A stretch of DNA of 12,516 nt from the IMG/VR virus record IMGVR_UViG_3300027628_000013; one strand, written 5' to 3'. A model generated the notes under the pieces. That model made no database searches. It worked only from the letters and a program-made list of their open reading frames with translations, and was not told the DNA's origin. This DNA is from a virus. Its lineage: Duplodnaviria; Heunggongvirae; Uroviricota; Caudoviricetes; Herelleviridae. A program made the position numbers and the translations under genes. Below, in pieces: positions 1,212 to 12,213 of this stretch (positions are counted from its first letter, which is position 1; each line of letters begins with the position of its first letter).

Positions 1212-2870
1212 ATGGACAACATCAGTAGTAGAGAGCTACAAGCTGTACTGGAAAAGAAAGACCCTGCATTATGGGCGCTTAAGCATAGATTCATTAAAGG
1301 AAACCCAATGACCTTTTTTAGTAATAAAACTGCACTGAAGCATAGACCGTGGCAGATTGACATACTGCGTGACCAACACCCTAACAAAACTGTACGTAAG
1401 TCACGTCAGTTAGGACTATCAGAAATGGCAATTACAGAGTTCATATGGTTCTTAGATACACATAATAACACCAAAGCAATGTACACGTTCCCACGTAAAG
1501 AGCAAATGGAGGATTTTAGTAACACTCGTATTGCTCCTATCTTTGAGGAATCTGAATACTTAATGACCACTCTTGATAAGAAAATGAACAACGTTCGTCT
1601 TAAAAAGATTAGAGATAGTGTACTCTTCCTACGTTCTGCATGGGGTTCGGGTTTAGGGGAGGGTGCCGATATCGACATCCTAGGTCTGGATGAGTATGAC
1701 CGTATGAAAGATAATGTAGAGGTAGCCTTCCAAGAGTCCCTAAAATCCTCTCACTACGGCTTCATGCGCAGATGGTCTACTCCTACTATACCTGGACGTG
1801 GCGTTGACTTCTTATTTCAAAAGTCTGACCAGCGTTTCTACTACCATAAGTGTGATAAATGTGGTCATTGGCAATTCCTAGACCCTGATAGCATCGTGTG
1901 TATTGATGACAAAAAGGTAGACATGATTAATGAAATTATTGATAACGGAGCATACCAGTTCCAGTGTAAGAGATGCCATAGGGAGCTTAACCGCTGGAAT
2001 CAGGGGGAATATGTAGCTCACTACCCAACTCGTAAGGACATCCGTGGTTATCACATTTCTCAGCTAGATGCTGTATGGATTAGTGCAGATGAAGTAATGC
2101 GTAACCAATTTGAGTACAAGTCAAAACAGCTATTCTATAACTACGTTATTGGAATACCTTATGCTTCTGAGGGTTTGATTATCACAGACCAAGATGTATA
2201 TAACTGTATTAAACACCAAGACCCAATTGGACACAGGGACTATTCTAAGTATAAGAGAATCGTAGCTGGGGTTGACTGGGGACATTTCAACTGGATGGTT
2301 GTGCTTGGGCTTACAGAAGATGATAGGGTTGACCTATTGGATTTGCATTGGGCTGAAGACAACCCACATAAACCCCTTGAATCGGTGAACCAGTTTGTTG
2401 CCTTATTAAAGCCTTATGACCCTGACGTTATAGTAGCAGATAATGGTTTCGGTGCTGATAGAAACTCTTACTTACTACAGCAGTTCCCTGCTAAAGTCTT
2501 TGCATGTGATTGGGATACTCCTAAGAACAATATTCCATTAGTAGATGCGTGGAGTGATGGCTCCCAACGTGTTCGTGTAGACAAAACTACTAAGATGAAA
2601 CGTACCCTTTATAATATCAAAGGTAGAGCACTTGGAGTGTTCAACATAAACGGTGAAGGTTCTGAAAAGCTTAAAATGCTTATAAAGCATTTAAAGAACG
2701 TTCGTACCATCGTAGAAGAAGATGAAGGTGAAATCTATGAGCGTGTAACACGTATTGGTGATGACCATTTAGCCTGTGCCCTTACTTATGGATACATTGC
2801 TCTTGACAGAATACTAGGTCTACACCTACCTCAGAACACTGATTTACTTGGAGACTACGAACGAATGTAA
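1212..2870 (+). CDS. terL: terminase large subunit, GpA/Herelleviridae type (552 aa)
   Basis: AGGAGG RBS; Walker A-like VRKSRQLGLSE; MYTFP; Walker B LGLDEYDRM; motif III WSTPT; CxxC...CxxC (CDKC, CKRC); RNase H-like nuclease motifs AGVDWG, VIVADNG and GDDH. Confidence 0.95.
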   Translation: MDNISSRELQAVLEKKDPALWALKHRFIKGNPMTFFSNKTALKHRPWQIDILRDQHPNKTVRKSRQLGLSEMAITEFIWFLDTHNNTKAMYTFPRKEQMEDFSNTRIAPIFEESEYLMTTLDKKMNNVRLKKIRDSVLFLRSAWGSGLGEGADIDILGLDEYDRMKDNVEVAFQESLKSSHYGFMRRWSTPTIPGRGVDFLFQKSDQRFYYHKCDKCGHWQFLDPDSIVCIDDKKVDMINEIIDNGAYQFQCKRCHRELNRWNQGEYVAHYPTRKDIRGYHISQLDAVWISADEVMRNQFEYKSKQLFYNYVIGIPYASEGLIITDQDVYNCIKHQDPIGHRDYSKYKRIVAGVDWGHFNWMVVLGLTEDDRVDLLDLHWAEDNPHKPLESVNQFVALLKPYDPDVIVADNGFGADRNSYLLQQFPAKVFACDWDTPKNNIPLVDAWSDGSQRVRVDKTTKMKRTLYNIKGRALGVFNINGEGSEKLKMLIKHLKNVRTIVEEDEGEIYERVTRIGDDHLACALTYGYIALDRILGLHLPQNTDLLGDYERM

Positions 2871-2886
2871 TATGGAGGTGAGGATT

Positions 2887-4533
2887 TTGGAACTTTATAT
2901 TGATTTAATCAAAGCAGAGCTGAACACAGCGAAGCTTGTTAAGAGAGCAGTACAGGTAAAAGGGAAAAACGGTCAAATGTTCACTAGGATGCAATGGGTT
3001 GACCCTAACGATGCCAGTACTGGTAATGGTACACGTCACATACAAAGCAAACTAGACTTCCAGATTGCTAAAGAGCATGGTATCATGAAACACCCTCATG
3101 CTGTTAAAGCTATGGCTGACCAAGGTGTTAAGATGGAGCACCACGATTGGGATAAACACCCCAGCTTTCATTTACCTGAGACTGAGGAGAGTGCCAAGCA
3201 TGCTAAGACAGAGGGCTTGATAAATCATACTCCTCATGGGGGTAAGGGTAATCAACATGACGACCCTGCTGTGCATAAAATGTTGGTGAAGCATGGTCTT
3301 CACCCACATATCCATGAAGTTGCTAAGGGATTCAATGATGCTATAGCTGGAGCTAAGGCTGACCCTGACTACGAAGAATACTCTCCAGAAACTAAGCATG
3401 AGGTTCTATTAGGGGCTGTAAATAGCCACATTCTAGAGCACTGGGATAAGGTTAGTGGTGCTCTTAAGGAGGAGATTAATGCAGACCCTGATACGGATTC
3501 AGTAATTAAGTTCACTAAGCTAGCGGCACTTAAGAGAACTACTAAGCATGAAGGTGCCATCCTAGCAGGAGTACATCCTCATTTAGCTCATGAAGCTGTA
3601 AACTCTATAGTAGGAGATGTGGACAAAGCCAATGGTTATAGGGGTGCACTAGCAACCTCTAACCTCACCATCAATGCTGACCACAGGGCATTGAAGCCCA
3701 TCATGAAAGAGGGATACAAGGCTTCCACTATGGAGGGGTATATACAGAAGACTATGGGTGATGAAGCGTGGTCACAAATGAATGATTGGTTAGCGGAAAA
3801 GACTACTCCTGAGATTATTGAAGCCATGGAAGATGATACTGAGTATGACTGGAGTGACGTTATAGACCGTATGCATGCGGAATACGACTCTATTGGGCTA
3901 GAAGCAGAGGACAACAAGCCAACATATGTAGCCTACAATGCAGGAGGTCACAAGGAAGGGGGAGCAGAGCACTTTGGTAGTGGTGTTATAAAGGTAGATG
4001 ACTCTATCTTGAAGCACTGTACAGCTACTTATGGTGACAGCTTCTTTGACACTCGTAACATTCCTAGCATTCATAGTATGGATCACCTAAAAGATGCGTT
4101 CCTTCTAAAACAAATAGGCAAAGGTAACCTAGCAGGGGAGTGGACTATGGGTAATGCAGAGGATGCCCTGATAGGTACAACAGCTCAGTCTATTCCAATA
4201 GAGCTTCAGTACCACCATCCTATGATTGAACCGCACCTAATGGAAATAGCTAACTACGGCTTAGGAAGTGTAGATGATGATTTTGCAGGAGAGGACATAG
4301 AGGATGGATTAGGAGACATATCAGACTTATTTGACGATGACGACTTCTCCTTATCAGACGATGACTTAGAGGAGTTAGGTGACTTTGAAGACTATGATGA
4401 CAGTGACGACCTATTTGATCAGTTAGAAGAAGCTGATTCTCCTATAGATGATGGTCTAGGTGACCTAGAGGATGATGACTTCGCAGATTGGGATACCTTA
4501 TTTGATGACCTAGAAGAGGAGGACAAAAAATGA
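2887..4533 (+). CDS. modular protein (548 aa): N-terminal LYIDLIKA motif, 28-aa basic hairpin module, His-rich region, divergent DUF3626-like domain, acidic tail; putative virion internal protein
   Basis: GGAGGTGA (2874-2881) 5 nt before TTG 2887 favours this start over 2848 or 2872. DUF3626-like motifs KPTYVAYN, HFGSG..K...CTATYGDS and IELQYH. 44 D/E in the last 91 residues. Confidence 0.75.
   Translation: MELYIDLIKAELNTAKLVKRAVQVKGKNGQMFTRMQWVDPNDASTGNGTRHIQSKLDFQIAKEHGIMKHPHAVKAMADQGVKMEHHDWDKHPSFHLPETEESAKHAKTEGLINHTPHGGKGNQHDDPAVHKMLVKHGLHPHIHEVAKGFNDAIAGAKADPDYEEYSPETKHEVLLGAVNSHILEHWDKVSGALKEEINADPDTDSVIKFTKLAALKRTTKHEGAILAGVHPHLAHEAVNSIVGDVDKANGYRGALATSNLTINADHRALKPIMKEGYKASTMEGYIQKTMGDEAWSQMNDWLAEKTTPEIIEAMEDDTEYDWSDVIDRMHAEYDSIGLEAEDNKPTYVAYNAGGHKEGGAEHFGSGVIKVDDSILKHCTATYGDSFFDTRNIPSIHSMDHLKDAFLLKQIGKGNLAGEWTMGNAEDALIGTTAQSIPIELQYHHPMIEPHLMEIANYGLGSVDDDFAGEDIEDGLGDISDLFDDDDFSLSDDDLEELGDFEDYDDSDDLFDQLEEADSPIDDGLGDLEDDDFADWDTLFDDLEEEDKK
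2923..3006 (+). repeat. 28-aa module NTAKLVKRAVQVKGKNGQ[MV]FTRMQWVDP, copy 1 (copy 2 at 5469-5552)
   Basis: 27/28 identical residues between the two ORFs. Confidence 0.95.
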
Positions 4534-7500
4534 CTAAGACACACATAGTAGCAGTTAATAGTGAGCGCACTCATGTAATCCTCAAAAGAGGACATCACTA
4601 TGCTTTAGTTAAAAGAAGACATGGTATTACAAGACATACAAAATGGGGAGGTCATAAAGTACTGAGTTCCCTAGTGACCAAGGGCAGTAGCTACAAGAAG
4701 CTTAAGAAGCCTAAGTTATACAAAGGTCATGATTTTGCTAAGTCTCAGGAGCTTACTATTGACTTAGAAAAGGGAAGAAAGTCTACTGGACGTGTAGACA
4801 AACAACCCGAACGTAAGTCTAAGCTAGACAATCTAGCTGAACAAATGAGCCTACAGAACTTTAAGCAAGACCTCATTGTACAGCAAGTTGTAAGCAAATC
4901 AGACGAATTAGTGATTGACTTGGAAAAGGCTGGAAAAGTTCATTTGCCACAAGGAGCGGAGCGTTTTGCCTATAAAGTTCCTAGTGAGCACGGTGTCATT
5001 TACATCCCTGTCAACCGCTTGAAGCAGGTTTATCAGACTGATGGAGCCTTAAACCCTAAGAAGATTAGTGAAAACCGCATGAAAATGCGTCAAGGTATTC
5101 CGTTGGAGCCTGTGGAAATTGGGTACAACTATGATGTACATGATGGTCACCATAGATGGCATGCGGCTATGGGTGAGGGGCATACCCACGTTCCTTGTAA
5201 GGTAAAAGGAACTGACCCTAAGAAACTAGCTGAAGCTAAACTGAACTATAGAGCTATTTGGAAGTCTACTTACGCTGAAGCAATGATGTGCAGAGATGTA
5301 GCAATTGCTAAAAGTTTAAGTAACCGTAATGACTTCTCAGTAGACCCAGCAGAAGAGGTAGAAAAGAAAAATAAGGCTAACTCAGAACATGCTCTTAAGC
5401 AGTTTTTAAGAGATTTAGGTATTGAGAAGTCTATCCCTCTAGTAATTGACATCACTAAAGGTCAGATTAACACAGCTAAACTAGTGAAGCGTGCTGTTCA
5501 GGTTAAAGGTAAGAACGGTCAGGTATTTACTCGTATGCAATGGGTAGACCCACATGACAAGGAAGCTATGGCAAAGACTAAGGCACCTGAGGAAGGTAAC
5601 CACTCTACTTTCTTACACCATGAGAAAGAGGTAAAGGAAATAGAAAGACGTCAGAGTAATAAGTTTCCTGTGCGCCACCATAAGACAGAAGACCTTAAGA
5701 ACACTAACCATAACTACCGTGTTGATAAGGACAAACTAGCTCAGGCAGAGAAGGATTATAAGGCTGGTAAGCACTTAGCTCCTGTCAAGATTAACCATAA
5801 AGGTGAAATCATTGACAACCACCACCTAGTAGACCTTGCTAAGAAGCATAAATTGTCTCATGTACCTGTAATGGTCTTTGGTAACCCTAGCATGAAGAAG
5901 GAGCTAGAGGAGAAGCTAAAAGACAAGGTTACTTATCACGATAAGGAAACTGGTGAAAAAGAGGTACTTGGTAAGCAAGGAAATGGTCACTTCTCACCAT
6001 ATGCATACGACAGAAATACTGAATATGCAACTCAACTTAAAGAGTTTGAGTCTATGGTTAAGCGCTTCCCTAGACAGCACGTAATGGATGAAGCCAAACG
6101 ACAAGGTATTGGGTGGAAATCTGATACAGACACTGGTAAAGAAGCTCCAGCACCTATTCAGTGGATGCGTGCAATGTCAGCTATCAAGAAACATATTACT
6201 ACAGGTGGTACTTTCGAGCTTAAGGAAGACCGCAAATTAATGAAGCAAAGAGCCAAAGAGCTAGGCAAGGGTAATGTTGATGTAGCATTCCAAGACCTTC
6301 TTGCTAAGCACGGTAATGACCGTGGTAAATTAATGGAGTGGGCTGATAGCAACGGTGTAGTTTGGAGACAAAAGAGTGACCCAGCTATTAACTGGATGTA
6401 TGCGGCTACTGCTATTAAGAAGGAATTAGCTAAAGGTAGGATGCTAGATGGAGTACGAACTCGTAACAAAGCTGATATGGCTGAAGCTAACCTTGTGGTC
6501 AGTGATAGTGTTAAAGCAATGGTTAAGAACATTGGTAAGAAGCATGACCGTGCAGACATCATGGAACGTATGATGGAGCTAGGTATCTCTTATGAAAACA
6601 CTAACAAGAAGGGTGAAGCATTACCTCAGAACTCTCCTATACTTTGGATGAGAGCTTCTACAGCTCTACAAAAGTATATAGCTCAGGGTAATCAGTTCCA
6701 TATGAAAGGTGAAGACCCTAATGCAGATGGTATCACTGCAACTCTAGGAAACTATGGTGATGGTAAGGTTTCTAAGTCTTCTGAAGTTGCATTGGACATT
6801 GCTAAGGCTAACAGTAAGAACTTTGAAGCACAGGCTAGTAAATGGGCTAAGAGAGCCTTTATGGTGGACTTTGGTGTAGAAGAAGGTAAGGCTGAAGAAA
6901 TGTACAAGGACTTCATGGAAAAGGCTAGAGGTACCAAGGTAATGGTTCACTTTGACCCACTAGAACAGCTCAAAGGCGGTACTAGTATGATAGACCAAAT
7001 GCTATCAGATGGAGTTATGAAGAATGACTTTGACCTTGATAGAGGGCATGACCAAGAGCATAAAGAGTCTATCGAAGCAGACCTCTACGGTGATGACTAT
7101 AATCCTAAGACTGATAGTGAGAGAGCGGTTTATGGGGTTGCGGATTTATTTAATCATGGAATCAATTCTTCTCCATATGGTGATGCGGCTATCACTCTTA
7201 AAGATGATGTAAGAAAGAGAACAACAGCGACACACTTAGATTCTAATAGCATTCCCTATGGTCAGGAAGGTAAGCAGGTCTACTCTATGGAAGACCCTCA
7301 CCACCTTCTAGTACAGAGATGGCATAGTCGTTGGAAAACTCCTAACAAGCCTGATGCACAGCGTAAACGTGCTATCGAGTCTGTTATCAATGGAACTCCT
7401 TACAAAGATGATAAGCGTTACTTTGAATCTCAAGTACACGGTACTATTGACTTTGCTAAGGACGTGGAGAACATCACTATACCTCAAGAGTGGAAGAATA

Positions 7501-7574
7501 AGGAGCATGCAGATAAGCACAGTAAGATTACTGAATTTGCTAACATGCACAACATTCCAATTAAGTATGAATAA
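4530..7574 (+). CDS. multidomain protein (1014 aa): two ParB/Srx-like domains, three W-M-R helical repeats, C-terminal DUF3626-like domain; putative virion internal polyprotein
   Basis: AGAGGAGG RBS and ATGA overlap. ParB-like DVHDGHHRWHAA...HVPC (4998-5210) and degenerate IIDNHHL...HVPV (5664-5882). DUF3626-like VMVHFDP, RAVYG, PYGDAAITLK..VRKRTTATHLDS and YFESQVHG..DFAKDV (6936-7490). Confidence 0.8.
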   Translation: MTKTHIVAVNSERTHVILKRGHHYALVKRRHGITRHTKWGGHKVLSSLVTKGSSYKKLKKPKLYKGHDFAKSQELTIDLEKGRKSTGRVDKQPERKSKLDNLAEQMSLQNFKQDLIVQQVVSKSDELVIDLEKAGKVHLPQGAERFAYKVPSEHGVIYIPVNRLKQVYQTDGALNPKKISENRMKMRQGIPLEPVEIGYNYDVHDGHHRWHAAMGEGHTHVPCKVKGTDPKKLAEAKLNYRAIWKSTYAEAMMCRDVAIAKSLSNRNDFSVDPAEEVEKKNKANSEHALKQFLRDLGIEKSIPLVIDITKGQINTAKLVKRAVQVKGKNGQVFTRMQWVDPHDKEAMAKTKAPEEGNHSTFLHHEKEVKEIERRQSNKFPVRHHKTEDLKNTNHNYRVDKDKLAQAEKDYKAGKHLAPVKINHKGEIIDNHHLVDLAKKHKLSHVPVMVFGNPSMKKELEEKLKDKVTYHDKETGEKEVLGKQGNGHFSPYAYDRNTEYATQLKEFESMVKRFPRQHVMDEAKRQGIGWKSDTDTGKEAPAPIQWMRAMSAIKKHITTGGTFELKEDRKLMKQRAKELGKGNVDVAFQDLLAKHGNDRGKLMEWADSNGVVWRQKSDPAINWMYAATAIKKELAKGRMLDGVRTRNKADMAEANLVVSDSVKAMVKNIGKKHDRADIMERMMELGISYENTNKKGEALPQNSPILWMRASTALQKYIAQGNQFHMKGEDPNADGITATLGNYGDGKVSKSSEVALDIAKANSKNFEAQASKWAKRAFMVDFGVEEGKAEEMYKDFMEKARGTKVMVHFDPLEQLKGGTSMIDQMLSDGVMKNDFDLDRGHDQEHKESIEADLYGDDYNPKTDSERAVYGVADLFNHGINSSPYGDAAITLKDDVRKRTTATHLDSNSIPYGQEGKQVYSMEDPHHLLVQRWHSRWKTPNKPDAQRKRAIESVINGTPYKDDKRYFESQVHGTIDFAKDVENITIPQEWKNKEHADKHSKITEFANMHNIPIKYE
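4734..6809 (+). repeat. four dispersed 14-aa repeats, hydrophobic-x-KS-xx-[LV]-x-[IL]D[LI]-x-K[AG]
   Basis: FAKSQELTIDLEKG (4734-4775), VSKSDELVIDLEKA (4890-4931), IEKSIPLVIDITKG (5421-5462), VSKSSEVALDIAKA (6768-6809). A half-site ELYIDLIKA lies at 2890-2916. Confidence 0.85.
6072..6698 (+). repeat. three ~45-50-aa helical W-M-R repeats (fourth copy at 9428-9553)
   Basis: Consensus R-x2-[VLI][ML][DE]-x5-G[IV]-x-[WY]...[IV]-x-WM[RY]-x3-A[IL]-x-K-x-[IL] at 6072-6215, 6321-6446 and 6549-6698. Confidence 0.85.
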
Positions 7575-7924: not shown

Positions 7925-8848
7925 GTGAGTAATGTTTTGAAAGCACCACCATATAATCCAGACCTAACCATCGAGAACTCTACAAAAGAAGAATTTATGA
8001 TGAACAGCATACGTTTAATATATCATGCAATGAAACGATACCAATGGTTTATAAATAATACATTTATAGAAGAGGGAGACCTTTTCTCTATAGGTTACAT
8101 AGGTCTTGACAAGGCTTATGAAAACTTCGACCCTAGCTATGGAGTTAAGTTTTCCACATATGCAGTTCCTAAGATAATGGGAGAGTTCCAAAGAACTGTA
8201 AGAGACTTTGACCCAGGAGCTAAGTTTCCTAGAATATGTAAAGAGATAGGTGCTTCCATACTGAAGCTTCTAGCTTCTAAGGACTTGGACTTAATGGACG
8301 TTGCCCCTGAATGGATTGCTGAGGAGCTAGAAAAGGATATCAAAGATGTAAAATCATCCTTGGTGTATCTAGAGTACAGAAAGTGCATAAATATAGGGTC
8401 TCCTATGTTTAAAAGTGAAGACAGCAAGACCCTAACTCTTGAAGATATGCTGGAAGACACTAGAATAGAGGATGTTGACAGGTCTGTAATCCTAGACGAC
8501 TTTAAGTCCAATCTAACTGAGAGAGACAGAAGGATACTAGACATGTACTTGACTGGCAGATATACTCAATACGATATTGGTGATATCATTGGCATGTCTC
8601 AGGTGCAGGTTAGTAGAATCCTAACTAAAATAGAGAGACTAGCCAGTAAGTACAACGATGGCTTTAACATTAAACAAAACACTAAATGGTCTAGGGACTC
8701 TAAAGAAGGTACTCCTGAGAAAGAAAAGGCTATTGAAATGCTAAAAGCAGGTAAACATACTATGGCTAGCATTGCAAGAACCTGTAACGTAGCTGAAAGT
8801 ACTGTATCACGTTGGAGGAAAAAATTAGAAGCCCAAGGCTTTATTTAA
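7925..8848 (+). CDS. RNA polymerase sigma factor, SigF/SigG/SigB-like, with extra C-terminal HTH (307 aa)
   Basis: Region 2 DLFSIGYIGLDKAYENFDPSYGVKFSTYAVPKIMGEFQRTVRD; region 4 LTERDRRIL...TQYDIGDIIGMSQVQVSRIL; GTG start with GAGGGGA RBS. Confidence 0.92.
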   Translation: MSNVLKAPPYNPDLTIENSTKEEFMMNSIRLIYHAMKRYQWFINNTFIEEGDLFSIGYIGLDKAYENFDPSYGVKFSTYAVPKIMGEFQRTVRDFDPGAKFPRICKEIGASILKLLASKDLDLMDVAPEWIAEELEKDIKDVKSSLVYLEYRKCINIGSPMFKSEDSKTLTLEDMLEDTRIEDVDRSVILDDFKSNLTERDRRILDMYLTGRYTQYDIGDIIGMSQVQVSRILTKIERLASKYNDGFNIKQNTKWSRDSKEGTPEKEKAIEMLKAGKHTMASIARTCNVAESTVSRWRKKLEAQGFI

Positions 8849-9322: not shown

Positions 9323-9333
9323 TATTACTCATA

Positions 9334-9366
9334 ACACTCCTGGATATTAAATCTAGGAGTGTTTTT
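9334..9366 (+). terminator. intrinsic terminator
   Basis: 12-bp stem ACACTCCTGGAT / ATCTAGGAGTGT (one G-U pair), 5-nt loop, then TTTT. Confidence 0.7.
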
Positions 9367-9385
9367 ATATGTAAGGAGGGATAAA

Positions 9386-9853
9386 ATGACTAGCCATCAC
9401 TATAAAGTATTAACAAGTGCGTTCAGTCGTACCCATCTGTTAGACCAAGGCACTAAGAATGGGGTACGTTGGGAAGAGAATGGTCATGAGGGTGTTAACT
9501 GGATGAGGTTTAGTAATGCCTTAGACAAACACTTATCTGCTAATCAGCCCTTCCATACTGATGATGCAGACGTACAAACATTAAAGCAAATGCACCAACA
9601 GTATACCCAAATTAGAGAAACTCATAAGAAGACCATGATTCCTCATGTAAGAGGAGCTATGCAACGTCTTAAAGAGAAGGATACAACTGGTATGGGTAGG
9701 CACCATACTGAATACCTGCAACAAGCATATGCTCATCTAGATGCAAATGGTGGTCATCATTGGGCTGAGAAGGTAAGCACCCTACACCATCTTAACAGTA
9801 AGATAAAGGGGTTAACAGAACGACTCTCCGCTAAGGGAGTAGAGATGAAGTAG
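9386..9853 (+). CDS. His-rich protein (155 aa) with one W-M-R repeat
   Basis: Start moved from 9359 to ATG 9386 (AAGGAGGG RBS). RTHLLD..GVRW..GVNWMRFSNALDKHL matches the repeats of the 1014-aa protein. 16 His. Confidence 0.8.
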   Translation: MTSHHYKVLTSAFSRTHLLDQGTKNGVRWEENGHEGVNWMRFSNALDKHLSANQPFHTDDADVQTLKQMHQQYTQIRETHKKTMIPHVRGAMQRLKEKDTTGMGRHHTEYLQQAYAHLDANGGHHWAEKVSTLHHLNSKIKGLTERLSAKGVEMK

Positions 9854-10615: not shown

Positions 10616-10633
10616 TTTTGAGTTTTAATTAAA

Positions 10634-11580
10634 GCACAGAGCGGTTGAGACACACCGCTGACGAGTAGAGTTTATCTCTACTCCGTACTGAGGCTCTGCC
10701 CCATACCTGTTCGAGTCAGGGGCTTCGCTTAGGAGTAGCTCTCTTTGGTGAAAGCAGTTATGGCAACTATGGGTAGCATCCCTGAGACCGTAGGTTCGAT
10801 TCCTGCGGAGGGTCTAGCTAACTTCTCCTATCCTTGGAGGGGTCTCAGTATGGAGTAGATTACTACTTCAAATATTATCACCTTGGGTAGTTGTTGGTCA
10901 GGGCAGGATATAGCCCCGAAATATATCTTAAGACTTGGATAGTTGACAGTAACTATCAAAACTACCACAGAGTAGGACGGTGCTCTTTATCCCGCTTGGG
11001 GGACGATAAAAACATACCAAGTGATATCCAGTTCAGGGAGTCTCCTGTTCCAACCGTCACTGTTATACAATACATGAAGGTACCTCTTGGGGTGTGTAGG
11101 TACATATTTAGGGATACGTATCCCTCCTCCTTTGGGAGGAAATCACCCCTTACAATATGGGAGAGTGGCGGAATTTGGTAGACGCACCCACGATGGGAAG
11201 GGGTAATAATTCCTAGGTCTAAATAACTCTGTGTAGGTTCGAGTCCTACTTCTCCCACCACTACTATTGCATAGAGCTTTTAATGAAAGTTGTATGGAGC
11301 AGTAATGTTCTAGGTGTACGGATAATACACCTTGTATTGTGTTGTAAGGTATCTTCGTCCCGAAGAGATGTGGTATAGATGTCGTGGAAAGCATCTATAC
11401 GGAGCGGTAGAGGGCTTGGGAACCCTCTATATTCTGATATATTGCAAACTAAGTATGAAGAGGTTACAGCGTACCTTAGGGAATGAACTCTTTGTGCCTA
11501 GTTTGGAGTATGTGAGATGCTCCACGTCTAATAAATTCATATATTGTCTTCAGCTGGATAGACCTTTCACCTATCCAGCA
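10634..11580 (+). ncRNA. large structured ncRNA, candidate GOLLD/ROOL-like
   Basis: About 950 nt with no credible ORF, more than 15 hairpins, nested long-range helices (10876-10886/11017-11026, 11068-11078/11536-11546, 11148-11158/11339-11349), T-loops and candidate pseudoknots; adjacent to a phage tRNA cluster. Ends and family are uncertain. Confidence 0.6.
11159..11260 (+). ncRNA. tRNA-Leu-like RNA lacking a canonical anticodon arm
   Basis: Acceptor GGGAGAG/TTCTCCC, A73, CCA; Leu-type D arm GCG-GAATTTGGTAGA-CGC; T arm GTAGG-TTCGAGT-CCTAC; three small hairpins replace the anticodon and variable arms. Confidence 0.75.
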
Positions 11581-11585
11581 CTCCT

Positions 11586-11661
11586 TGTCCATTAGCTCAG
11601 TTGGTAGAGCGCTTGACTGTTAATCAAGATGTCACTGGTTCGAGCCCAGTATGGACAGCCA
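11586..11661 (+). tRNA. trnN: tRNA-Asn(GTT)
   Basis: TGTCCAT/ATGGACA acceptor; anticodon arm CTTGA-CTGTTAA-TCAAG; T loop TTCGAGC; G73; encoded CCA. Confidence 0.97.
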
Positions 11662-11664
11662 TAT

Positions 11665-11752
11665 GGAGAGTTACTCAAGCGGCTTAAGAGGACAGGTTGC
11701 TACCTTGTTAGGCGCTTTATAGCGTGCATGGGTTCGAATCCCATACTCTCCT
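11665..11752 (+). tRNA. trnS: tRNA-Ser(GCT)
   Basis: GGAGAGT/ACTCTCC acceptor; ACAGG-TTGCTAC-CTTGT; long variable arm; ATGGG-TTCGAAT-CCCAT; no encoded CCA. Confidence 0.92.
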
Positions 11753-11754
11753 TT

Positions 11755-11825
11755 ATCCCTATAGTGTAGCGGTAGCACTACAGTCTCCAAAACTGTCAGG
11801 CTAGGTTCGAACCCTAGTAGGGGTG
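11755..11825 (+). tRNA. trnW: tRNA-Trp(CCA)
   Basis: ATCCCTA/TAGGGGT acceptor; ACAGT-CTCCAAA-ACTGT; CTAGG-TTCGAAC-CCTAG; G73; no encoded CCA. Confidence 0.93.
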
Positions 11826-11828
11826 CTT

Positions 11829-11952
11829 GTTCCGTTAGTGTAAGTGGTGCACACTTTGCCCAATATTAACCGCTTTTATAGGACTGTGCTTGGTCGTATT
11901 CTTGTCGGGTTGAAGGCTGGTAGAGTAGGTTCGATTCCTGCACGGAACACCA
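11829..11952 (+). ncRNA. tRNA-like RNA with a 54-nt insert in place of the anticodon loop
   Basis: GTTCCGT/ACGGAAC acceptor, A73, CCA; D arm GTGT-AAGTGGTGC-ACAC; T arm GTAGG-TTCGATT-CCTGC; weak anticodon stem TTGCC/GGCTG enclosing 11861-11914. Confidence 0.75.
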
Positions 11953-12013
11953 AAATATAATATTTACTCAATCCAGTTAAGGGGTATCTGGTAATAAATA
12001 CCCCACCTATATT

Positions 12014-12089
12014 GGAGCTTTAGCTTAATTGGTAAAGCCCCCTGCTCATAACAGGGTTTATACAGATTCGAGTTCTGTAGGCTCCACCA
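12014..12089 (+). tRNA. tRNA with CAT anticodon, probably Ile2 (elongator Met not excluded)
   Basis: GGAGCTT/AGGCTCC acceptor; CCCTG-CTCATAA-CAGGG; encoded CCA. Paired G1-C72 and no triple G-C anticodon stem exclude an initiator. The GGA.CTT acceptor and CTCATAA loop resemble Bacillus tRNA-Ile2. Confidence 0.85.
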
Positions 12090-12094
12090 ACAAT

Positions 12095-12166
12095 GCCCCT
12101 ATGGTGTAACGGATAGCACAACAGGCTTCTATCCTGTTAGTCTGAGTTCGAGTCTTAGTAGGGGCG
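12095..12166 (+). tRNA. trnR: tRNA-Arg(TCT)
   Basis: GCCCCTA/TAGGGGC acceptor; ACAGG-CTTCTAT-CCTGT; D loop GGATA (A20); no encoded CCA. Confidence 0.94.
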
Positions 12167-12213
12167 TTTCCTTATGCTTTTTAGGGAGAAAATAGAATAC
12201 AGGAGATGATACC

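Follow-up and report, generated by a model that had tools for sequence, protein, structure and literature searches.

Double-lysine motifs in a polyvalent protein of an SPO1-type phage: predicted prohead-protease sites and a candidate capsid-loading tag

In a stretch of 12,516 nucleotides from the IMG/VR virus record IMGVR_UViG_3300027628_000013 (Herelleviridae), referred to below as the window, one gene encodes a polyvalent protein of 1014 residues, P0001, in which a 14-residue motif with two lysines recurs four times. What are these motifs for, and is the protein meant to stay whole? P0001 (4530..7574; phrog_26588, E 7e-251; 37 homologues) overlaps with its start the stop codon of the upstream open reading frame (ORF) in an ATGA, and that ORF encodes a protein of 548 residues which opens with half of the motif; both genes, the large terminase gene and all motifs and domains described below lie on the plus strand. 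Public records label P0001-type proteins solely as ParB-like partition nuclease. The first-pass annotation had read the motifs as prohead-protease sites dividing a polyprotein, and this reading was favoured for motifs 1-3 and the single site IWKS, which stand in linkers predicted to be disordered, are conserved among homologues and carry the signature of capsid and scaffold sites, but not for motif 4. Judging from sequence comparison, we consider it rather probable that P0001 and the 548-residue protein are head cargo cut after lysine by the prohead protease, with the second half of the motif as a removable leader.

The motifs followed the pattern h-x-K-S-x2-[LV]-x-[ILV]-D-[LI]-x-K-[AG] (h, hydrophobic) and began at residues 69, 121, 298 and 747 of P0001. 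Motif 1 (FAKSQELTIDLEKG, residues 69-82, 4734..4775) was composed of FAK↓S, the arrow marking the predicted cut, and the tag QELTIDLEK↓G; motif 2 (VSKSDELVIDLEKA, residues 121-134, 4890..4931), located before the first ParB-like domain (ParB-1), of VSK↓S and the tag DELVIDLEK↓A; motif 3 (IEKSIPLVIDITKG, residues 298-311, 5421..5462), located before a basic β-hairpin, of IEK↓S and the tag IPLVIDITK↓G; and motif 4 (VSKSSEVALDIAKA, residues 747-760, 6768..6809), a doubtful site, of VSK↓S and SEVALDIAK↓A. Two single sites, IWK↓S (residues 243-246) and IAK↓S (residues 259-262), were found in the linker after ParB-1 (5256..5315). The residues and bases of the four motifs, of IWKS (5256) and of IAKS (5304) were exactly those first annotated. 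The half-motif [LV]x[ILV]D[LI]xK was expected 0.018 times per shuffle of P0001, and four copies occurred in none of 20,000 shuffles; for the strict tag expression, about 0.35-0.4 matches were expected per whole proteome of a relative. The four copies differed in their codons, with 17-25 of 42 bases identical, which showed that the peptide was conserved and ruled out a recent duplication of the DNA. Internal translation starts at the motifs were ruled out too, since no start codon was present there, the residue aligned with the leader Met being Q, D, I or S.

The AlphaFold model of P0001, built on 34 homologues, had a mean predicted local distance difference test (pLDDT) score of 77, and its segments below 50 were residues 67-95, 116-144, 243-273, 295-313 and 481-496. 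Motif 1 fell into the first of these segments, motif 2 into the second, IWKS and IAKS into the third and motif 3 into the fourth, while motif 4 formed the start of a confident helix (749-781). Eight of the 15 h-x-K(S/A/G) sites of P0001 were located within the 12% of residues predicted to be disordered (p=1.4e-4). The linkers contained 12 lysines, 8 of them within such sites.

The placement of the motifs at domain borders, as first annotated, agreed with the model. The N-terminal β-rich domain (residues 1-63, 4530..4718; strands within 4-63, pLDDT about 80) was followed by two short helices, and its release by cuts at K71 and K81 is predicted; SPO1 gp2.12 and the homologues P0007 and P0032 lack this domain and, as does P0036, begin at tag 1, the modules being split at tags. 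ParB-1, a ParB/sulfiredoxin (Srx)-like domain with the signature DGHHRW (residues 145-242, 4962..5255), matched Srx and ParB structures in Foldseek, was 61% identical to SPO1 gp2.12, and was joined by a helical linker to the basic β-hairpin (QINTAKLVKR...MQWVDP; 5463..5552; strands 317-326 and 332-339), the usual partner of the tag. A degenerate second ParB-like domain (ParB-2; 5559..5939; phrog_620 and the AlphaFold fold) and three helical W-M-R repeats (6018..6689; helices within 497-718; phrog_22909) came next. The C-terminal DUF3626 domain (6774..7571; PF12294, E 3e-9) had an ADP-ribosyltransferase (ART)-like fold, with SopF (7dn8, E 6e-8, TM 0.62) and also DarT as the best structural matches in Foldseek. 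P0001 thus joined at least two unrelated conflict or effector domains, the ParB/Srx-like and the ART-like DUF3626 domain, to the hairpin and the helical repeats, and domain searches against Pfam and PHROG gave no match to a peptidase or MuF; PF26856 was precomputed on some homologues. A stand-alone W-M-R helical repeat ORF of 164 residues was present elsewhere in the window (9359-9853; phrog_22909, E 4e-51), with terminator-like hairpins at 9333 and 9848.

Conservation was examined in 31 homologues of 40-50% identity, the clade of the window left out, against equal windows in folded parts, 17% of which contained an h-x-K↓(S/A/G) site. Sites were conserved before the hairpin in 31/31 homologues (full tag in 29), before ParB-1 in 30/30 (full tag in 18), at the end of ParB-1, as VWK↓S, in 29/31 (no full tag), and after the N-terminal domain in 20/27 (full tag in 1). 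At this last border it was the form h-E-K↓(S/G)RKS that was kept in the 20 homologues, and the full tag was confined to the clade of the window and to proteins starting there. W244 and K245 of the VWK↓S site were nearly invariant and K310 of motif 3 was invariant, while the linkers around the conserved sites varied greatly in length, with insertions including whole domains. The region of IAKS was variable, with some site in the aligned stretch (reference residues 251-290) in 12 of 27 homologues, so that IAKS fitted the first annotation by its disordered linker but was kept in under half of the homologues. A site at the position of motif 4 was found in 1 of 31 homologues, never with a full tag; because it is not conserved and opens a confident helix, motif 4 is doubtful as a cleavage site. 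The exact spacing noted for the double-lysine motifs held in the lineage of the window but not elsewhere, as K↓S and the tag were 1-8 or more residues apart in other homologues; because of this variation, the exact 10-residue spacing was taken to be lineage-specific.

The same signature was found in head proteins. In phage phi812, the capsid precursor (5lii, 463 aa) reads VVK-SFQTGYGITP, and the deposited mature chain (9row_B, 439 aa) starts two residues ahead of QTGYG, at Ser25, after Lys24; the capsid of Listeria Pecentumvirus (A511-type Cps) has the site DALK↓SFTTGY. The capsid cleavage after lysine at hydrophobic-x-K↓S that the first-pass annotation gave as known for herelleviruses was thereby backed for phi812, and the A511-type site fits it. 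The aligned capsid site was LNK↓ALEAG in SPO1, CP-51, JL, vB_EalM-132 and L081, the last being an IMG/VR contig of 17.9 kb described below. The SPO1 protease gp3.2 belongs to Peptidase_S78 (PF04586), a family present in 759 Herelleviridae-type records; its HK97 member cleaves at Lys↓Ser. In SPO1, CP-51, JL and vB_EalM-132, the scaffold was the ORF richest in h-x-KS (9-13 sites per about 270 aa, p 1e-8 to 1e-13), with the protease in second or third place. The consensus of 53 scaffold sites showed an acidic residue at P5, L/I/V at P3, K at P1, S at P1', a hydrophobic residue at P2' and an acidic residue at P3'. The h-x-K signature was therefore common to capsid and scaffold within these four phages and L081, all of them relatives of the window phage.

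L081 came from the sample of the nearest record to the window, a 13-kb fragment whose protein is 97% identical; it overlapped the last 354 bases of the window (87% identity) and continued syntenically with lysin, RNR, a 463-aa and a 570-aa protein, a gp5.3-like basic protein, portal, protease, scaffold and capsid genes. The three genes directly upstream of the portal all bore tags: MELYIDLSK↓G in the 463-aa protein, VEK↓SLGGLYIDLEK↓G in the 570-aa protein and LLTIDLEK↓G in the gp5.3-like protein. The L081 scaffold had 15 sites in 268 aa (p=3e-8), the capsid had QLNK↓ALEAGY, and the protease had an N-terminal MDIAK↓S and NVNK↓ALEAGY near the C-terminus.

In the prohead proteases of SPO1 (gp3.2, L009:7158-7928), L081 (14086-14859), CP-51, JL and vB_EalM-132, the catalytic domain was followed by a copy of the arm that forms the N-terminus of the mature capsid protein, K↓(S/A)-LEAGYEVDP..GG.FR.ESL; it was through this copy that the capsid query matched the protease ORF. 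The same proteases had a tag-like E-L-x-L-Y-L-Q-L-x-K↓G near the C-terminus. The arm copy and the tag-like end may be the way in which the protease gets built into the procapsid, and its N-terminal x-D-I-x-K↓S and the C-terminal sequence may be the protease's own copies of the code discussed below.

To follow the tag across relatives, residues 296-346 of P0001 (tag plus hairpin) were searched with HMMER over 1.84 billion representatives, and 96 cluster representatives matched; nothing usable for tag plus hairpin came from the ESM Atlas. Tags adjoined hairpins in 61 cases, and 38 of these 61 started within the first 12 residues, typically as M-(E/D)-(L/F)-Y-I-D-L-x-K. The residue after the tag lysine was A, G or S in all 61. 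Among the 23 internal tags, 16 had an h-x-K(S/A/G) site at most 14 residues upstream, and at the other end of the chain 12 proteins of an HExxH family ended in RK↓S-x(1-5)-L-x-h-x-L, with a tag behind the site (background 2.5%). A predicted cleavage site was thus always present between tag and cargo, the pattern expected of an excised peptide. Compared with an ordinary scaffold site, the tag had hydrophobic residues at P7 and P5, Asp at P4 and mostly A or G instead of S at P1', so that it was more than a minimal cleavage motif, and these additional features suggest a role that goes further than cleavage.

Tags also marked the joints at which genes had been fused. In P0011, P0012 and P0014 from uncultured relatives, both adjacent window genes were fused into one ORF of 1,430-1,480 aa; the joint in P0011 was HK↓GLYIDMIK↓G, and P0012 and P0014 had single h-x-K↓S sites only. 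Nearly all strict tags in complete genomes were in genes adjoining TerL or directly upstream of the portal, and 41 of 51 tag-hairpin loci in IMG/VR were within 10 kb of an SPO1-type TerL or of the portal/protease/capsid set. In SPO1, gp2.12 and gp5.3 bore tags, and a tagged 437-aa protein of CP-51 matched the minor head protein family phrog_4611. Gp5.3 (L033:19026-19442) and its counterpart in L081 (11703-12347), encoded just upstream of the portal, are small proteins made of tag, hairpin and an extremely basic Lys-rich tail; proteins of this type are candidates for a DNA-bound internal head protein. A family of proteins of about 1,000-1,100 aa encoded beside the portal comprised those of CP-51 (L025:5970-9239) and vB_EalM-132 (L019:2206-5502) and P0045-P0057. 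Its members had a W-(L/M)-H-P-E-V element at the N-terminus, a double-lysine tag, helical repeats resembling the ones in P0001 and, C-terminally, both an HExxH domain and a further tag; a member may be encoded elsewhere in the genome of the window phage.

Within the window, the cargo genes were located next to the packaging genes. The window reads as one colinear segment of a myovirus of the SPO1 type (Herelleviridae, Spounavirinae). A small terminase-like ORF, the large terminase, the 548-aa ORF and P0001 are followed in it by a sigma factor gene, small ORFs, a set of five tRNAs and the first part of a lysin gene, and SPO1 has the same order with gp2.11 terminase, the ParB-like protein gp2.12, the sigma factor gp2.21, tRNAs and a lysin-like gene. 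The gpA-type large terminase (1212..2870; PF05876, phrog_675) opens a transcription unit with the two cargo genes: a terminator-like site was found at 1166-1189 upstream of it and the next strong one only after 7858, so that P0001 and the 548-aa ORF share one unit with TerL. The 548-aa protein (2887..4533; phrog_27103/25452) was composed of an N-terminal tag, a basic hairpin, a DUF3626-like region with a match under the Pfam cut-off, and an acidic tail. The likely start of its ORF was the TTG at 2887, 5 bases after the ribosome-binding site GGAGGTGA; given this start, the protein opens with MELYIDLIKA as first annotated, and the homologue P0042 opens alike from its called start, with MELYIDLIK and then A. 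A cut after Lys9 is predicted in this N-terminal tag copy (MELYIDLIK, 2887..2913), in the position that the leader has in 38 of the 61 tags. The acidic tail, about 100 residues of nearly pure Asp/Glu/Leu/Gly/Phe (window 4200-4533), was also present in P0039, P0042 and P0054. Full-length relatives of P0001 were those of the Exiguobacterium phage vB_EalM-132 and the Bacillus phages CP-51, JL and Shanette, together with a partial S4-1 record. Further downstream, the sigma factor (regions 2 and 4; window 7925-8848) had an additional C-terminal helix-turn-helix, HTH_23 (residues 268-305), and the five tRNAs (Asn, Ser, Trp, Met, Arg; 11586-12167) were preceded by about 950 bases with no convincing ORF (window 10620-12167).

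From these observations the following course may be proposed. P0001 and the 548-aa protein would be produced together with the terminase and built into the procapsid, where a prohead serine protease of the Peptidase_S78 type would cut them after Lys in hydrophobic-x-K↓S/A/G. Each 14-residue motif would represent two cut sites around the decapeptide tag (S)-x-E-L-x-I-D-L-x-K. In a module standing first in its ORF, the tag would be an N-terminal propeptide, M-E-L-Y-I-D-L-x-K↓A/G/S; in fused modules it would remain at the joint and acquire an upstream K↓S, and a C-terminal tag would be preceded by K↓S. Flanked by a site in any position, the tag would always be separable from its cargo. Cuts at motifs 1-3 and IWK↓S would yield four main pieces of P0001, namely the small N-terminal domain, a short stretch of basic character, ParB/Srx-like domain 1 and, at about 80 kDa, the hairpin, ParB-2, the repeats and the ART-like domain in one piece. 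The released pieces would be delivered along with the DNA. Both the cleavage by the prohead protease and the presence of the proteins in the head are inferred from sequence. Whether the tag itself addresses the cargo, rather than just being a preferred substrate, is close to balanced, with a slight lean towards the latter. More tentatively still, the decapeptide E-L-x-I-D-L-x-K could be a general and portable capsid loading code of SPO1-type phages, used N-terminally, internally and C-terminally, excised after use and perhaps shared with the protease.

Several points weigh against cleavage by the prohead protease. Motif 4 failed on both disorder and conservation, and its position reads LSKxQxxAVDLAKRNS in other homologues. 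The h-x-K(S/A/G) site is short and common, and unrelated window ORFs contained 0.5-1.9 of them per 100 aa. Low pLDDT predicts disorder but does not prove that the sites are accessible, and the conservation of K133-A134 could reflect the ParB fold. The head genes of the window phage are known from the relative L081 and lie outside the window. In Listeria Pecentumvirus LP-048 the tag was not found and the enrichment of sites in the scaffold was weak, despite the same capsid site, and the tag was not seen among the extra proteins detected in Pecentumvirus virions, where a candidate of about 57 kDa (via the Listeria phage CKA15) had no leader. The literature searched yielded neither a virion proteome nor N-terminal data that cover any homologue, the paper on Goe2 and Goe3 being one without proteomics, and no description of a capsid-targeting signal of the lysine type for Herelleviridae.

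Other explanations of the motifs have to be weighed against the same evidence. The tag might be an uncut β-strand element for docking or oligomerization, pairing for instance with the hairpin, with the portal or with a different cargo module, and the Lys-Ser/Ala/Gly pairs would then be incidental. Its alternating hydrophobic residues and invariant Asp, which go beyond the cleavage consensus, and motif 4 as a tag-like sequence inside a folded helix fit such a role; however, A, G or S followed the tag lysine in 61/61 cases, the tags lay in segments predicted to be disordered, and the flanking site changed sides: it followed N-terminal tags, preceded C-terminal ones and bordered internal ones at either end, a pattern predicted by excision and not by docking alone. 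We therefore regard docking without cleavage as unlikely.

The enzyme might also be a different one, the zincin-type metallopeptidase (MPTase) of a companion polyvalent protein. CP-51, JL, vB_EalM-132 and many metagenomic relatives encode an HExxH protein of about 1,090 aa, which has a full double-lysine motif near residue 63 as well as the C-terminal tag, and autoprocessing of polyvalent proteins by an MPTase is proposed in passages of PMC5512222. With the HExxH protein of CP-51 as query, however, no homologue was obtained in SPO1, although gp2.12 and gp5.3 are tagged there, so that an MPTase is unlikely to be the general enzyme; in L081 no HExxH-type protein was present between the RNR gene and the portal, and the site signature was that of the S78 protease's substrates, namely capsid, scaffold and protease. 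This makes the MPTase a very unlikely agent.

An equally small chance is given to P0001 as a cytoplasmic enzyme that is not packaged and is processed by a host or other phage protease, or by none. The public annotation as ParB-like partition nuclease only and the lack of virion data for homologues in the literature searched would agree with this, but the genes adjoin TerL or the portal, the sites share their signature with head proteins, and the tagged CP-51 protein belongs by its match to a minor head protein family. That the internal motifs are functionless relics of the N-termini of formerly separate genes is highly improbable: fusion and fission at these points are frequent, but motifs 2, 3 and VWKS were kept at 40-50% identity while the linkers changed in length and sequence, the different codons of the copies point to selection on the peptide, and the internal copies acquired an upstream K↓S that N-terminal copies lack.

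Cleavage by the prohead protease, as proposed here, can be compared with several known systems. Polyvalent proteins were described by Iyer, Burroughs, Anand, de Souza and Aravind (2017, PMC5512222), according to the relevant passages of that paper, as ParB-like, ART and other conflict domains strung together beside head genes, with packaging and injection predicted and with processing proposed by a built-in MPTase or by fused assemblin-like peptidases; an own peptidase or a MuF/portal anchor is present in about 36% of the class and is not obligatory. P0001 resembles them in its multiple domains and its position directly downstream of TerL in one unit, with relatives adjoining TerL or the portal, but it has no MPTase or assemblin-like peptidase, an HExxH being found only in a separate companion of some relatives. 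In section 8 of that paper and in the passages retrieved by term searches, no mention was found of lysine sites, of a decapeptide tag or of the prohead protease acting in trans. If the proposal is right, it would explain how polyvalent proteins without a peptidase of their own are dismantled, and proteins annotated as ParB-like partition nucleases would become injected enzymes of the ParB/Srx-like and ART-like kinds, accompanied by a small basic protein of the gp5.3 type.

The giant phages are another phage group with another protease motif. Their prohead protease motif is of the Glu type, and we know of no common short tag of this kind in their head proteins. Maturation in phiKZ, 201phi2-1 and SPN3US involves prohead-protease cleavage of many head-internal or ejection proteins, according to PMC7411985 and PMC10052503. 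The likeness to capsid maturation in Herelleviridae (phi812/K, A511-type Cps) is in the same protease family and the same site; the difference is that cleavage is known there for the capsid protein only, and that the Listeria phage examined had no tag.

The internal proteins IPI-III and Alt of phage T4 carry a capsid targeting sequence (CTS), which the prohead protease gp21 removes. The CTS is an N-terminal leader of about 10 residues that ends in the cut site of the protease, and its cargo enters the scaffold core and is set free by the same enzyme that trims the capsid and scaffold proteins. The likeness is in the short terminal leader ending in a cleavage motif, which is N-terminal in 38 of the 61 tags, the 548-aa ORF of the window included, and in the cargo, which comprises an ADP-ribosyltransferase and small basic proteins, gp5.3 of SPO1 looking like the latter. 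The two systems differ in the cut, which is predicted here after Lys (h-x-K↓S/A/G) by a serine protease of the S78/HK97 type, whereas gp21 of T4 cuts after Glu (L/I-x-E). The tag is also unrelated in sequence, and here it is found internally and C-terminally as well, where it would divide multi-domain polyproteins. If true, the SPO1 group of Herelleviridae would gain a sequence rule for head-borne proteins and their cut points, as the CTS is for T4, the sequence could directly reveal the injected payload, and a simple tag could bring foreign proteins into the heads of laboratory Bacillus phages. By this analogy, the motif set is probably the lysine-type counterpart of the T4 capsid targeting sequence, extended to the splitting of polyvalent polyproteins.

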